Shown piece after piece: positions 37,801 through 64,000 of a stretch of 64,000 nucleotides of DNA. Every line of letters starts with the position of its first letter. Position 1 is the first letter of the stretch. Location of the stretch: the NCBI RefSeq assembly GCF_053078305.1, contig NZ_CP166879.1. One strand, 5' to 3'. The notes under the pieces were generated by a model. The model saw nothing but the letters and a program-made list of their open reading frames with translations. It did no database searches and was not told the origin of the DNA. Made by a program: the position numbers and the translations under genes.

Positions 37801-39165
37801 TTACGTGCAGATTTCGTAGCAAGGGATGTAGGCTGAGCCTGGCAACTTCATACGATGCTGGGCAACAAAACCCTGTAGCAGGTCGTCCATACGACGCATA
37901 ATCTCTTTATCGCCGTTGATTTTGTAAGGACCAAACTCTTCAATGGCGCGAATACCGACTTCTTTTACGTTACCCGCCACAATACCGGAGAACGCACGGC
38001 GCAGGTCGGCAGCCAGCACTTCAACGGGTTGATCCGGGTAAAGCTTCAGATTAGCCATATTCTCGTGAGACGGCTCAAACGGCATTTGCAAATCTGGCGC
38101 AATGCGCATTGACCAGTTAAAGCTGTAAGCGTCACCAGTGTCGCGGCGATTTTCTTTCACCAGCGGCATCGATTTTTTCATCTGACGAGCGACTTCAGCG
38201 GCGTCATCAATGATGATGCGGTAATGGCGGCGCGCGTTTTCACCCAGCGTATGCACGACAAACTCGTCCAGTACGCGGAAGTAGTCGGCGCTCTCTTTCG
38301 GGCCGGTGAGGATCAATGGTAAAACCTGATCTTTGTTGGCCGGGTTCATTAAAATTCCCAGCAAATACAGCAACTCTTCTGCCGTACCCACACCGCCAGG
38401 GAAGATAATGATACCGTGAGCGATACGGACAAACGCTTCCAGACGTTTTTCGATATCCGGCATGATGATCAATTCGTTGACCAGCGGGTTAGGCGGTTCA
38501 GCGGCGATAATCGACGGCTCTGTCATACCAATAAAACGACTGTCTTTGTAACGCTGCTGCGCGTGTCCGACCGCAGCGCCTTTCATCGGCGCTTCCATCG
38601 CTCCTGGACCACAGCCGGTGCAGATATTCAGCTCGCGCAGCCCCAGCTGGTTTCCGACGCGACGGGCATACAAATACTCGTTTTCGTTAATTGAGTGACC
38701 GCCCCAGCAGACCACCATATTTGGCGCTTCACCCACATGCAGTGCGCGAGCGTTACGCAAGATGGAAAAGACCAGGTTAGTGATGTGGACGGAGTTGTCG
38801 AGATTCAGGTTGGGAAAACGAACGGTGTTATGGATTTGCCCGTAAACGAAGAGAATGTCTCGCAGAACCGCGAACAAGTTGGCCTGCAAAGCGCGAATAA
38901 TTCGCCCATCGACAAAAGCCTCTTCCGGGGGATTAATCAGTTCCAGCTTTACGCCGCGTTCACGGCGCAGGACGTTAATATCGAAATTTTCAAAACGAGA
39001 CAGCAATTCTTTGCTGTTATCGGTCAAACTACCGGAGTTCAGTACGGCAAGTGAACAGTTGCGAAACAGTTGATAGAGGTCGCTGCTGGCGGTGCGTTTA
39101 AGCATATCCACTTCCAGCTGCGACAACATATCCATGGAGCCAAGCGGGCTAATATGTGTAATCAA
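37801..39165 (-). CDS. ppnN: Nucleotide 5'-monophosphate nucleosidase (LOG family)
   Basis: 454-aa ORF recognised as YgdH/PpnN. Confidence 0.9.
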
Positions 39166-58891: not shown

Positions 58892-59785
58892 TTACCAGCG
58901 ACCGGACGCGCCGCCACCGCCAGAAGAACCGCCCCCGCCGCTAAATCCGCCGCCACTTGAGCCTCCACCGGAAGAGGATGAAGAAGAACTTTTTCTTGAA
59001 GCTCTTTCTTTACTGAGTTTTTTGTATTTGGCGCGTAGCTTTTTATTGACGATAAGCCAAAAAATAACCAGTGGTACGCTCGCAAAAGGCGTTAACATAC
59101 CGCAGGCAACGATTAAATTGGTCCATGGTCCTGGCTCGGCAACATAGAGGAATACCATCCCGTAAATGGCGCCAGTGAGAGTGATCCAGGGTAAATTCGA
59201 CGGATCGGTAAAAACAATAAAATATGAAAGTACCGCCAGCAATATAATTACAGCAAGCGATAATGGAATAGGGGGATTGATACTGTAATAATCCCCCTTG
59301 TCTTCCGATAATTCACCATTCAACAGAAGCGCGCCGATATTTTCGCTTGCCAGTGTTAATCCACCCATCAGGTCATCACTTTTGAAGGCAGGGATCAATA
59401 TATCCCTGATAATCTTCGCCGCTTGCAGGTCGGTAACCACCCCTTCCAGCCCGTAGCCAACCTCAATACGAACAGCATGATCCTCCCAGGCAACCAGAAG
59501 TAAAATACCATCGTTTCTCTGCTTATCTCCCAGTTTCCAGCTATCAAAAACGCGTGTTGCATATTGTTCAATGGAATCGTCTCCGGTGGACGGCACTACT
59601 AATACAGCGACCTGCGCCCGTGTTTTATGTGTAATATCCTGCAGTTGCTGTGTCAGTGATTGTTGTTCAGAAGTGCTTAACGTACCAGTAATATCGGTCA
59701 CCTGTTGGCGCAGCTCCGGCACAGCAATTTGCTGGGCAAGCCCAGGAAGGCACCACAAAGTGAATAGAATAAAGATTAAGCGCAT
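58892..59785 (-). CDS. TPM-domain membrane protein (YgcG-like), eno-proximal paralogue
   Basis: Signal peptide MRLIFILFTLWCLPGLAQQ, then TPM-like region (…ITGTLSTSEQQSLTQQLQ…AQVAVLVVPSTG…), hydrophobic segments, and C-terminal Gly/Ser tail ending SGRW; ATG at 59785 preferred over the TTG at 59797. Confidence 0.8.
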   Translation of the reverse strand: MRLIFILFTLWCLPGLAQQIAVPELRQQVTDITGTLSTSEQQSLTQQLQDITHKTRAQVAVLVVPSTGDDSIEQYATRVFDSWKLGDKQRNDGILLLVAWEDHAVRIEVGYGLEGVVTDLQAAKIIRDILIPAFKSDDLMGGLTLASENIGALLLNGELSEDKGDYYSINPPIPLSLAVIILLAVLSYFIVFTDPSNLPWITLTGAIYGMVFLYVAEPGPWTNLIVACGMLTPFASVPLVIFWLIVNKKLRAKYKKLSKERASRKSSSSSSSGGGSSGGGFSGGGGSSGGGGASGRW

Positions 59786-59790
59786 TACGA

Positions 59791-60939
59791 TCACCAACGG
59801 CCGGATGAACCGCCGCCTCCTGAAGAACCGCCACCACCGCGGAAAGAATTTCTCGACGAAGAGCGAGAATGAGCATTACGATTCCCCGTTTTCCTGTTGC
59901 TTTTTTCTCCTGACCCCAGCTTAAGATTGCCAGTAAATTTGGCCACAATGATCAGCAGAACGATGCCAGCAATGGTTATTGGGCCGATAAAATGATCAAT
60001 TAACCCAATAATTGTTGAGATGAATGCAATATCTTTATTACTGGCGAACACCAGGCACCATCCCACAATAATTATCAGCATCACGACAAACAATGAATTT
60101 CGTCCTGATTCACGAACCTGCGGAGTCTTCTTTTGTTTTTTCACTTTAGCGTTTTTATTTTTTGGGGCCAGCATCATAGGAAATACGCGGCACAAATTAA
60201 AAACTACCGCGAGACGCTGCTTGCAGGTTGTTGCTAACAATAAACTAAAACAAACGACCGATACCCGCCGAATGATGACATCGTCCTGAAAGGAGAAAAA
60301 CCAGACCATAGGGGTAATCATCGATATCATCCATATGCCACGCCGTGGGCGGCTGGCAAATCGCCAGAGGACAACGATGGCAACGATCATCAGCAGTGTC
60401 CAGGCAAGACATGGCAGCGAACGTTGCGGATTAGCAAACAGATGATTGGCTAAAGCATCCAAAGGGCTAAGGTTCGCTTTGATATGGGTAAACTGTGCGA
60501 TGCTTTCAATTCCGCCCGTTAATCCAGCAAAGAGATTGTTTTTTTCGAATTCTGGCTGCATATGGTAACGAACAATTTGCGCAGCTTGTTCCGGCGGCAA
60601 CATCTCTTCCAGTCCATGTCCAATCTTCATTGACGCCAGCCCTTCCGGCCATACGACGAGAATTAAGATACCTTCGCCATATCGCTTCTCTCCAACGGGT
60701 TTCCAGTGATATACCCCGTATCTCTGCGAGGCTGCAAGTTTAATGTTTTTGCCCCCTGTGGTCGGCGTAACCAACACGGCCACCTGGAAGTGGTTTTGCT
60801 GCTCGAGAGTCTGTAATTGTTGAGTTAAAGCAGTTTGTTCTTCTGTCGTTAATGTCCCGGTTAAGTCATTCACTGAAGGCAATCGTTCAGCGAATACCTG
60901 AAAACTGCATAGCATCAGAAGTAAGAGAAAAATACGCAT
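59791..60939 (-). CDS. TPM-domain membrane protein, divergent and longer middle paralogue
   Basis: Signal peptide, TPM-like N-terminal region (SVNDLTGTLTTEEQTALTQQLQ…), several hydrophobic helices, a Lys-rich segment (KNKNAKVKKQKK) and a Gly/Ser tail ending SGRW. Confidence 0.75.
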   Translation of the reverse strand: MRIFLLLLMLCSFQVFAERLPSVNDLTGTLTTEEQTALTQQLQTLEQQNHFQVAVLVTPTTGGKNIKLAASQRYGVYHWKPVGEKRYGEGILILVVWPEGLASMKIGHGLEEMLPPEQAAQIVRYHMQPEFEKNNLFAGLTGGIESIAQFTHIKANLSPLDALANHLFANPQRSLPCLAWTLLMIVAIVVLWRFASRPRRGIWMISMITPMVWFFSFQDDVIIRRVSVVCFSLLLATTCKQRLAVVFNLCRVFPMMLAPKNKNAKVKKQKKTPQVRESGRNSLFVVMLIIIVGWCLVFASNKDIAFISTIIGLIDHFIGPITIAGIVLLIIVAKFTGNLKLGSGEKSNRKTGNRNAHSRSSSRNSFRGGGGSSGGGGSSGRW

Positions 60940-60956
60940 ATCAATTCCTTTTGTTA

Positions 60957-61847
60957 CTAGCGCCCGGAAGCGCCACCGCCACCAGATGAACCGCCACCAC
61001 CGCTGAAATTGTCATTGTTGAATGAAGAGGATGACGATGATGAATAGTGGGAGGAAGAATTGCTTCTTGTATGGCGTGATGGCTGGTTGACATCACGCAT
61101 CAAATCCCGAACTTTTTTGCCGAAGGGAGTAACAGCGATGGCGACAGCCAGGAACGGTGTGGCGAAGCAGAGTAATGTTGCGAGTACTCCCCAGCTTCCG
61201 CTGAAGCCTGCTATAGGTAAAACAAAGGCCAGTACAATAGCTGCGAAGCAAATTACTCCCAGCGTTTTGATATATCCTCTGGCAGAAATAAACGTCAGTA
61301 CTATCGCCCAGACTAACAATGCCCACCAACCGCTAAAGGGCAAAGGGTGATCGGTCGGTGTAATCGTTGCTAAATTATTCCCCGTCAGACGACTTTCAAG
61401 ATCGCTGATCCCCTTTTGTAAACCGACAGCAAGGTCGCCTTTTTTAAATGCAGGAATAATATTGTTGCGAATAATTTTCCCGGACTGCGCATCCGTAATA
61501 ATACCTTCCAGTCCGTAACCGATTTCAATACGCACGGTATGATCCTGCCAGGCGACTAACAGTAGAACGCCATTATCGCGGTCTTTATCACCCGGTTTCC
61601 AGCTATCGAATACCCGCGTTGCGTACTGCTCGATGGTTTCATCGCCTGTTGTATCAACCACTAACACGACCAACTGTGCGTGGTTTTTTTGCGTCAGGGC
61701 TTTAATCTGGTTGGTCAGGGTGTTTACTTCGCTGTTTGTTAATGTGCCGGTTAAGTCATTCACATACTTGGGGGATTCAGGTACTGGAATTTGTGTGGCA
61801 AACACAGATGAACAGAAGAAAGCCATAAGGAAGATAAAATTTCGCAT
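60957..61847 (-). CDS. TPM-domain membrane protein (YgcG-like), LemA-proximal paralogue
   Basis: From the ATG at 61847 (MRNFIFLMAFFCSSVFA signal peptide), TPM-like region closely similar to the eno-proximal paralogue, hydrophobic segments and a Ser-rich/Gly-rich tail. Confidence 0.8.
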   Translation of the reverse strand: MRNFIFLMAFFCSSVFATQIPVPESPKYVNDLTGTLTNSEVNTLTNQIKALTQKNHAQLVVLVVDTTGDETIEQYATRVFDSWKPGDKDRDNGVLLLVAWQDHTVRIEIGYGLEGIITDAQSGKIIRNNIIPAFKKGDLAVGLQKGISDLESRLTGNNLATITPTDHPLPFSGWWALLVWAIVLTFISARGYIKTLGVICFAAIVLAFVLPIAGFSGSWGVLATLLCFATPFLAVAIAVTPFGKKVRDLMRDVNQPSRHTRSNSSSHYSSSSSSSFNNDNFSGGGGSSGGGGASGR

Positions 61848-61860
61848 AGAACTTCCCCGC

Positions 61861-62463
61861 TTAATGAGCATTAGCATTCTGGCTAAAATCTATTGTTGGG
61901 GCTTTACTTACTGCGGTGACATCATCCGGCAAATAATTTTTCTTTGGTGTGTAATCCATGACCTTTGCGGTTAATACAGCGGGGAATTTGCGGATAGTGA
62001 CATTATATTGTTCAATGGCTTTAATATATCTTCCTCGCGCAACGGCAATTCTATTTTCACTTCCTTCGAGCTGTACCATTAAGTTTTGATAGAGCTCTTG
62101 AGCCTTTAACTCAGGGTAACGCTCACTAATTATCGTTAACTGACCGAGAGTGCGAGTCACCTGCGCCTGGGCCTGTTGCCAGGCTTGTAATTTTTGTGCA
62201 TCTCCCGGAGCTTGCTGAAGATCGCTGCTGGCGCGATTAGCCTGGCTACGAGCCAATGTTACGGCTTCCAAAACGTCTTTTTCATGGCTGGAATAACCTT
62301 TAATACTGGCGACAAGATTAGGAATAAGATCGGCGCGACGTTGATATTGATTCAATACCTCAGACCAGGAGGCGTTAACCTGCTCATCATAGGTTTGAAT
62401 ATCGTTATATCCACAGCCTGATAAATTGAAAATAAATATAATTACGATGAATATTCTGAGCAT
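61861..62463 (-). CDS. LemA-family lipoprotein
   Basis: 200-aa ORF with lipobox (…IFNLSGC) and LemA-like sequence (…WSEVLNQYQRRADLIPNLV…); first gene of a four-gene minus-strand cluster. Confidence 0.8.
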   Translation of the reverse strand: MLRIFIVIIFIFNLSGCGYNDIQTYDEQVNASWSEVLNQYQRRADLIPNLVASIKGYSSHEKDVLEAVTLARSQANRASSDLQQAPGDAQKLQAWQQAQAQVTRTLGQLTIISERYPELKAQELYQNLMVQLEGSENRIAVARGRYIKAIEQYNVTIRKFPAVLTAKVMDYTPKKNYLPDDVTAVSKAPTIDFSQNANAH

Positions 62464-62635
62464 GTTTAAATCCCTTTTAATTAATTCCTTAAAACATAAT
62501 ACTCTGCTTCATTTTATTCTTTATGATCTAATCCACTTTTTGCCATAAACCTGCCTGTAACAGAATGTTAATAAGACATGATTGTTGTGGCAGGATCTGC
62601 AATAATTAACAATTATCCACTTCACAGAGAATGCT

Positions 62636-63307
62636 ATGCAGTACCCGATTAACGAGATGTTCCAGACCCTGCAAGGTGAGGGTTACTTTACCGGCGTCCC
62701 CGCCATTTTTATTCGTTTACAGGGATGCCCGGTTGGCTGTGCCTGGTGCGACACCAAACACACCTGGGAAAAGCTTGAGGATCGGGAAGTCTCCCTTTTC
62801 AGCATTCTGGCGAAGACCAAAGAGAGTGATAAGTGGGGGGCGGCGAGCAGTGAAGACTTGCTGGCTGTCATTGGTCGCCAGGGATATACCGCGCGGCATG
62901 TGGTGATTACGGGTGGTGAGCCTTGCATTCATGATTTGCTGCCACTGACTGACCTGCTCGAAAAGAACGGTTTTAGCTGCCAGATCGAAACCAGTGGTAC
63001 TCATGAGGTACGCTGCACACCGAATACCTGGGTTACCGTATCGCCAAAGCTGAACATGCGCGGCGGCTATGAAGTGTTGTCACAGGCACTGGAGCGAGCC
63101 AACGAAATCAAGCATCCAGTGGGGCGCGTACGTGATATTGAAGCACTGGATGAACTTTTGGCGACGCTGACCGATGATAAACCGCGAGTCATTGCTCTGC
63201 AGCCGATTAGCCAAAAGGATGATGCCACACGTTTGTGCATTGAAACCTGCATTGCGCGTAATTGGCGTTTGTCGATGCAAACCCATAAATATTTAAATAT
63301 TGCCTGA
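62636..63307 (+). CDS. queE: 7-carboxy-7-deazaguanine synthase (radical SAM)
   Basis: 223-aa ORF starting MQYPINEMFQTLQGEGYFTGVPAIFIRLQGCPVGCAWCDTKH, recognised as QueE/YgcF. Confidence 0.9.
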   Translation: MQYPINEMFQTLQGEGYFTGVPAIFIRLQGCPVGCAWCDTKHTWEKLEDREVSLFSILAKTKESDKWGAASSEDLLAVIGRQGYTARHVVITGGEPCIHDLLPLTDLLEKNGFSCQIETSGTHEVRCTPNTWVTVSPKLNMRGGYEVLSQALERANEIKHPVGRVRDIEALDELLATLTDDKPRVIALQPISQKDDATRLCIETCIARNWRLSMQTHKYLNIA

Positions 63308-63645
63308 TTAAACATTTATAAGCGTTATAAATGGGTGGAACCTGTAAAGACTTCTACTCATTTATATTCTTTGTCGTCTCTGAAAAACCTCCATTTTGCC
63401 CATCCTGAACTAATCATTATCATTCTCTACAAATTCTGTGGCGTTAATTTTTCACTGGAGTGAAAATTATTGCGGTAAAGTTTGGTAGATTTTAGTTTGT
63501 ATAGAGTTATTTTAAATATTTACCTTTTTAATCAATGGGTTAAGTGCTCTTTAACATAATGGATGTGTTGTTTGTGTGATACTGTAAAGTTGGTAGATTG
63601 TGACTGGCTTAAAAAATCATTAATTAATAATAGGTTATGTTTAGA
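63308..63645 (+). promoter_or_regulatory. AT-rich CRISPR leader
   Basis: About 340 bp of AT-rich non-coding sequence immediately upstream of the first repeat; orientation matches the crRNA-sense repeat. Confidence 0.7.
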
Positions 63646-64000
63646 GAGTTCCCCGCGCTAGCGGGGATAAACCGTAATGAGTCAGGGGAATACCGAATAT
63701 TTTATAGAGTTCCCCGCGCTAGCGGGGATAAACCGAAATTTATCGAGATCGGCAGGGGTTACTGACAGAGTTCCCCGCGCTAGCGGGGATAAACCGGCCG
63801 TTAATCCGGACTGCCAGCGAATAACGCTGAGTTCCCCGCGCTAGCGGGGATAAACCGCAACATATTTAAACGATTTAAGCCAGGCATATGAGTTCCCCGC
63901 GCTAGCGGGGATAAACCGGGATTCATCACGCGGTTATCCGGGGGCCGTTAGAGTTCCCCGCGCTAGCGGGGATAAACCGGTGGTTGCGGGGTTATCGGTG
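63646..64000 (+). CRISPR. Type I-E-like CRISPR array; 6 repeats and 5 complete spacers in the window, array continues beyond the window end
   Basis: 29-nt repeat GAGTTCCCCGCGCTAGCGGGGATAAACCG at 63646, 63707, 63768, 63829, 63890 and 63951, with 32-nt spacers: TAATGAGTCAGGGGAATACCGAATATTTTATA / AAATTTATCGAGATCGGCAGGGGTTACTGACA / GCCGTTAATCCGGACTGCCAGCGAATAACGCT / CAACATATTTAAACGATTTAAGCCAGGCATAT / GGATTCATCACGCGGTTATCCGGGGGCCGTTA; a sixth spacer is cut by the window end. Confidence 0.95.

Follow-up and report, generated by a model that had tools for sequence, protein, structure and literature searches.

An array of identical repeats stands at the very end of the 64,000-nucleotide stretch of DNA analysed here (the window), directly downstream of queE, and each of its repeats carries T at position 14, where the usual E. 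coli type I-E repeat has C. No cas gene accompanies it in the window. This raises the question of which array it is, whether it is separated from a cas operon in any unusual sense, and whether its uniform repeat variant and its spacers tell more than arrays at such a locus ordinarily do.

Identity of the array and its leader

The feature is almost certainly the start of the E. coli CRISPR-II (CRISPR2.3) type I-E array, with its leader and its first six repeat-spacer units, located between queE (ygcF) and ygcE, as judged from sequence comparison. Six identical 29-nt repeats (GAGTTCCCCGCGCTAGCGGGGATAAACCG) were found with a repeat finder and a regular-expression pass, in an exact 61-nt period from 63646 to the window end, and they are interleaved with five complete 32-nt spacers, all different, and with the first 21 nt of a sixth spacer that is cut by the window end (Table 1). 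Six perfect 29-mers in exact register cannot be the product of chance. All six copies have 28/29 identity to the canonical type I-E repeat GAGTTCCCCGCGCCAGCGGGGATAAACCG, a form that was checked in K-12 CRISPR1, and the 61-nt spacing occurs five times with five unique 32-nt spacers. The repeat RNA is predicted to fold into a 7-bp stem with a tetraloop at -15.1 kcal/mol, the same as for the canonical repeat. No further I-E-like repeats with up to 5 mismatches were found on either strand of the whole 64-kb window beyond these six, and an Rfam scan of 62400-64000 returned no CRISPR-DR family, its sole match being Chlorobi-1 at chance level (E 0.35).

Table 1. Coordinates of queE, the leader and the repeat-spacer units in the window (C14T, T instead of C at position 14 of the repeat).
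Feature	Position	Strand	Remarks
queE (ygcF), 7-carboxy-7-deazaguanine synthase	62636..63307	+	Flanking marker gene of the CRISPR-II locus
CRISPR2.3 leader, entire queE-array intergenic region, 338 bp, 70% A+T	63308..63645	+	
Repeat 1 (leader-proximal), C14T	63646..63674	+	Integration site and copy template for new repeats (template role: PMC3384332)
Spacer 1 (newest), TAATGAGTCAGGGGAATACCGAATATTTTATA	63675..63706	+	No match in E. coli genomes, phages, plasmids or IMG/VR
Repeat 2, C14T	63707..63735	+	
Spacer 2, AAATTTATCGAGATCGGCAGGGGTTACTGACA	63736..63767	+	Chance-level matches only
Repeat 3, C14T	63768..63796	+	
Spacer 3, GCCGTTAATCCGGACTGCCAGCGAATAACGCT	63797..63828	+	No match
Repeat 4, C14T	63829..63857	+	
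Spacer 4, CAACATATTTAAACGATTTAAGCCAGGCATAT	63858..63889	+	Same as a spacer in E. coli HS-type arrays
Repeat 5, C14T	63890..63918	+	
Spacer 5, GGATTCATCACGCGGTTATCCGGGGGCCGTTA	63919..63950	+	No match
Repeat 6, C14T	63951..63979	+	
Spacer 6, first 21 nt, GTGGTTGCGGGGTTATCGGTG, cut by window end	63980..64000	+	Same as the start of ECNB21-M121 spacer 5

The E. coli CRISPR-II locus has been described as consisting of arrays CRISPR2.2 and 2.3, with CRISPR-I and the cas-E genes located between cysH and iap (PMC3903273). The order eno, three TPM-domain genes, LemA, queE and array seen in the window recurs in E. coli genomes that have an annotated CRISPR array at this place, with ygcE after it; in these syntenic genomes ygcE is followed by yqcE and, further on, by queD, cysJIH, hok, cas3-casABCDE-cas1-cas2, a second array and iap. 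The window queE product is identical to K-12 QueE at 223/223 amino acids, and queE is annotated at the same position in PapRG-06-5, HS, ECNB21-M121 and ETEC6335. The window shows the queE side of the array, and ygcE would lie on the other side, as synteny in these same four genomes suggests. The segment was matched in 5,421 of the 5,426 complete E. coli genomes, among which the best 23.6-kb match to the window reached 99.4%, so that the window is E. coli DNA from a strain outside that set. A previous sequence-only reading had placed the array about 340 bp after queE and in the same direction, and this was borne out by a measured distance of 338 bp between the end of queE and repeat 1, with the leader between them.

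Over its 338 bp the leader has a mean column identity of 98% with the leaders of K-12, HS, PapRG-06-5 and ETEC6335, and 89 of the 90 nt nearest repeat 1 are invariant across them, the variable column (277) being a base found in K-12 only. This identity agrees with published work in which leader 2.3 is similar or conserved in all strains, those without cas-E included (Almendros 2014, PMC3903273). The final ~110 nt can be aligned with CRISPR1 leaders as well. A perfect match to the IHF consensus (AATCAATGGGTTA) lies at 63530-63542, 116 bp upstream of repeat 1, and the 64-kb window has only five of these in total, with both strands counted. The aligned site in the CRISPR1 leader of ECNB21-M121 fits the IHF consensus, whereas that in the K-12 CRISPR1 leader does not. 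The leader also contains an imperfect internal duplication, GTAAAGTTTGGTAGATT at 63476-63492 and GTAAAGTTGGTAGATT at 63584-63599. A promoter and terminator scan of the leader stayed at chance level, with two sites against 1.8 expected, and gave no convincing promoter near repeat 1.

In E. coli type I-E systems, transcription of the array is driven by the leader, cleavage by Cas6e yields 61-nt crRNAs, interference is carried out by Cascade and Cas3, and Cas1-Cas2 integrates new spacers at the junction of leader and repeat 1. By analogy, a promoter in the A+T-rich leader would transcribe the window array in the queE direction, Cas6e cleavage at the base of every repeat hairpin would produce the 61-nt crRNAs by which Cascade and Cas3 are guided, and new spacers would be inserted by Cas1-Cas2 at the leader/repeat-1 junction with repeat 1 being copied.

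The genes on the other side of queE vary between strains. In the window the eno-queE interval (58892-62463, minus strand) contains the three TPM-domain genes and the LemA-family gene, as in PapRG-06-5 and others, unlike K-12, which has only yqcG and ygcG there; in HS the interval holds a TPM gene, yqcG and IS1. The gene content of this interval is a structural polymorphism adjoining the CRISPR-II locus.

Position and state of the cas operon

The sequence-only reading had described the array as cas-less and distal to its cas operon. The first part stands as an observation, since there are no cas genes in the window, but not as a feature of the array, because the window ends 355 bp after the array start, at a standard CRISPR-II locus, and cas genes are missing from it for that reason. 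In relatives, cas3 starts ~17.4 kb (ETEC6335) and 19.1 kb (ECNB21-M121) after the array start. Being "cas-less" is an effect of the window edge. A complete cas3-casABCDE-cas1-cas2 operon is present in four of the five genomes with the C14T repeat that were examined for cas (ECNB21-M121, TUM13936, NCTC9112 and Combat11I9); it lies about 17 kb downstream of the array in ECNB21-M121, ETEC6335, TUM13936 and NCTC9112, and at the equivalent position in Combat11I9. If the window strain has kept its cas operon, this would lie between cysH and iap, some 17 kb after the end of the window.

Loss of the operon does happen at this site. PapRG-06-5 reads cysH-hok-iap and lacks both the cas genes and a CRISPR1 array, yet it has a 12-repeat CRISPR2.3 array, which makes this a natural orphan array in the closest examined relative of the window: over queE and the leader the two differ at 2 positions in 1010 bp, fewer than any other examined genome. 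It is possible, though we regard it as unlikely, that the window array is truly orphaned too, its I-E cas operon having been deleted as in PapRG-06-5 to leave a silent relic with neither acquisition nor interference; this would concern the state of the array and not its identity. In favour of this, the PapRG-06-5 array was kept without cas, has the same spacer backbone and comes from the nearest genome, and leader 2.3 is conserved in strains lacking cas-E (Almendros 2014, PMC3903273), but the complete operon in four of the five C14T genomes argues for its retention, and the five leader-proximal spacers, four of them unique among the 5,426 genomes, suggest fairly recent acquisition activity. 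Moreover, the window stops short of the position where cas genes are expected, so that their absence from it does not count towards deletion.

Some further variation at the cas site was observed among the relatives. In PapRG-06-5 a hok/gef gene is the only one between cysH and iap (38279-38821 of the segment compared), and in ECNB21-M121 an IS421 is inserted between hok and cas3. Either cas-E sequence variant can accompany an array with the C14T repeat: Combat11I9 has the K-12-like gene lengths, and ECNB21-M121, TUM13936 and NCTC9112 have the other variant. This is in agreement with published work that regards the evolution of CRISPR-II as independent of the cas/CRISPR-I module.

Origin and spread of the C14T repeat

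The sole difference between the window repeat and the canonical E. coli I-E repeat is C14T, present in all six copies. The sequence-only reading had given C as the usual base, and the K-12 repeats confirm it: C stands at position 14 in all CRISPR2.3 repeats (GTG...GCGCCAGCGG) and in all CRISPR1 repeats (GAG...GCGCCAGCGG) but one, an exception near the trailer end that reads GCGTTAGCGG. Position 14 falls, as had been proposed, in the predicted hairpin loop, a tetraloop at positions 12-15 that reads GCUA in place of GCCA, and the predicted structure and minimum free energy (-15.1 kcal/mol) are equal for both forms. The change looks neutral and, from its position in the loop, Cas6e processing would be expected to tolerate it.

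Why all six repeats should carry the same change becomes clear from related arrays. Six arrays with C14T were read from end to end (PapRG-06-5, ECNB21-M121, TUM13936, NCTC9112, KV7 and Combat11I9). In each, 6-10 C14T repeats form a block, after which come canonical repeats and, last, a degenerate terminal repeat; the block is leader-proximal in five of the arrays, the exception being ECNB21-M121, in which the first repeat is canonical. In K-12 CRISPR2.3, six A2T repeats precede a G29A terminal repeat that has A at position 2, and in HS seventeen A15T repeats precede canonical ones. A uniform leader-proximal variant is, as these arrays show, the norm at the CRISPR2.3 locus. Previous work established repeat 1 as the template for every new repeat (Yosef 2012, PMC3384332), and because of this a mutation in repeat 1 is passed on to every later unit. 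The six repeats of the window would be uniform because repeat 1 of an ancestor acquired the C-to-T change in its tetraloop and all units added since have copied it, and the older repeats beyond 64000 are expected to be canonical, as in the relatives.

The proposal that T14 is the consensus of this array and not terminal decay is upheld by these comparisons, the relatives returning to canonical C at the trailer end, but a uniform variant is nothing special, since this locus has the same pattern in K-12 (with A2T) and in HS (with A15T), and it follows from the copying of repeat 1 (PMC3384332). Compared with K-12 CRISPR2.3, the window array is alike in its position by queE, its orientation, its leader (98% by column), its 29-nt repeat and 32-nt spacer and its uniform leader-proximal variant over canonical trailer repeats, but the variant is A2T (GTG...) in K-12 and C14T in the window, and the two have no spacer in common. 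The array is thereby a clean natural illustration of repeat-1 templating. Only a single base is concerned, as a sequencing or assembly artefact or the usual degeneration of terminal repeats might produce, but we regard either origin as next to impossible, given six identical copies here and 117 copies in 39 independently sequenced genomes, and given that the T copies stand at the leader end while degenerate terminal repeats (G29A and others) stand at the trailer end.

The exact C14T repeat was found in 39 of the 5,426 complete E. coli genomes (~0.7%), with 117 copies in all, in a count made with a 30-nt megablast query able to seed on the T variant only. Seventeen of the 39 carriers have 4-10 copies each, and in at least 13 of these 17 the copies are in the queE-adjacent array, according to coordinates or direct reading. 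C14T is rare, yet it has been sequenced many times already; together with the locus, the leader and the spread of repeat variants, it is already known from public genomes and the literature. The blocks occur on at least four different trailer backbones, and their growth by 6-10 units on several backbones shows that integration tolerates the variant repeat. One queE-leader haplotype common to all carriers would have pointed to a single origin of C14T, but an alignment of this region in ten genomes showed that the carriers have no such haplotype and that the region is a recombination mosaic.

The array of ECNB21-M121 (1296-1995 of the segment compared) has C14 in repeat 1, C14T in repeats 2-9 and canonical repeats at 10-11; its repeat 1 has therefore reverted or been replaced, whether by back-mutation, gene conversion or recombination, and the array has since gained one spacer. 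This genome and PapRG-06-5 have four older spacers in common. Although its array has spacers in common with those of the window and PapRG-06-5, the queE haplotype of ECNB21-M121 is clearly different, which is evidence that recombination has had breakpoints in or close to the array.

Type I-E repeats with a GCTA loop are also among those tabulated for Salmonella (PMC9754226) and for Klebsiella (PMC8847753); the tabulated forms have the same C-to-T in the tetraloop and an otherwise identical I-E core, but they begin with GTG, not GAG, and belong to other genera. Together with the C14T blocks on at least four trailer backbones, this recurrence, as far as the two tabulations go, is what one would look for if C14T were a selected functional variant, altering for instance Cas6e processing, crRNA stability or integration efficiency, and not a neutral marker of repeat copying. 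We consider selection very improbable. The variant is rare (39/5,426 genomes), lies in the loop with predicted stability unchanged, behaves like the other single-base variants A2T and A15T, and has gone back to C in repeat 1 of ECNB21-M121. C-to-T is the commonest kind of mutation, so that recurrence is expected under neutrality, and the queE-leader haplotypes show that the region recombines.

Spacer content and relationships

The 21 visible nt of spacer 6 are the start of spacer 5 of ECNB21-M121 (GTGGTTGCGGGGTTATCGGTGGTAGTCACAAT), which is flanked there by C14T repeats. Sharing of a leader-distal spacer with a spacer group of CRISPR2.3 arrays was thus found, by way of these 21 nt. Because spacer 6 is common to ECNB21-M121, a match that rests on 21 nt, the window array would therefore belong to the ECNB21-M121/PapRG-06-5 lineage and would have gained five units of its own next to the leader. 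The arrays of ECNB21-M121 and PapRG-06-5 have the same C14T repeat, locus and synteny as the window array, and window spacer 6 corresponds to ECNB21-M121 spacer 5, but the five leader-proximal spacers of the window are in neither of them, repeat 1 of ECNB21-M121 is canonical, and PapRG-06-5 is without cas.

Spacer 4 has a 32/32 match in the CRISPR2.3 arrays of eight genomes, E. coli HS and seven others close to it, its copies standing at 63858-63889 in the window, at 2501-2532 of the HS segment and at 1773-1804 of another A15T segment of the HS lineage. The HS array is at the same locus as that of the window and shares this one spacer, but its uniform variant is A15T: in the HS-type arrays spacer 4 has A15T repeats on both sides and its neighbouring spacers are different from those in the window. 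Because the neighbours differ between the arrays, the likeliest explanation is that the two lineages took up one and the same protospacer independently, from an invader that is in none of the collections searched; recombination is a less likely explanation. A metagenome scan for spacer 4 gave a single match, in a contig that represents an earlier state of an HS-type CRISPR array and not a target.

Spacers 1, 2, 3 and 5 had no match in the 5,426 E. coli genomes or in the phage, plasmid and IMG/VR collections. Comparison of the five spacers and the partial sixth with 72,556 plasmids and 50,697 phage records (blastn, word 11, E up to 10) gave nothing better than chance: the matches, at E 0.7-9, were in phages of Pseudomonas, Acinetobacter and Vibrio and in a Thalassospira plasmid; for spacer 2 these were phiKZ-like phages at E=3 and the Thalassospira plasmid at E=0.7. 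The 5,426 complete E. coli genomes, searched with E up to 1, contained no prophage or chromosomal protospacer, and IMG/VR, scanned for each spacer 1-5 as an exact pattern in which every sixth position was N, gave zero matches. Within the window no self-targets were found with up to 8 mismatches. No protospacer, which in a type I-E system would be flanked by an AAG-type PAM, was found for any spacer across the E. coli, phage, plasmid and IMG/VR searches, nor for spacer 4 in the metagenomes.

Most E. coli I-E spacers are without an identifiable target. The BLAST comparison that the sequence-only reading had recommended returned, above chance level, spacer 4 alone, within HS-type arrays, and its expectation that the spacers would reveal past invaders was disappointed. 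Against the refuting conditions that it had named, the result is mixed: neither the repeat nor the spacers are those of K-12, but no informative protospacer match came up. The only new content of the array is four spacers with no target found; being new with respect to the 5,426 complete E. coli genomes, they are usable as a strain-typing marker.

A bolder proposal has two separate parts: that functional advantage fixed C14T leader-proximally and independently on at least four CRISPR2.3 backbones and in Salmonella and Klebsiella, and that spacer 4, found in two unrelated repeat backgrounds, records a widespread E. coli invader missing from the phage, plasmid and viral-metagenome collections. 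We put this forward as highly speculative and think it very doubtful.

A further pair of spacers was observed among the relatives. The spacer ACGAAAAACAGGCTGCAAGTCTCGCTGACCAA of NCTC9112 and KV7 and the spacer ACGAAAAACAGGCCGCGAGTCTCGCCGATCAA of Combat11I9, located in different arrays and repeat backgrounds, differ at 4 of 32 positions, and by their sequences they look like one protospacer taken from diverged relatives of a single invader.
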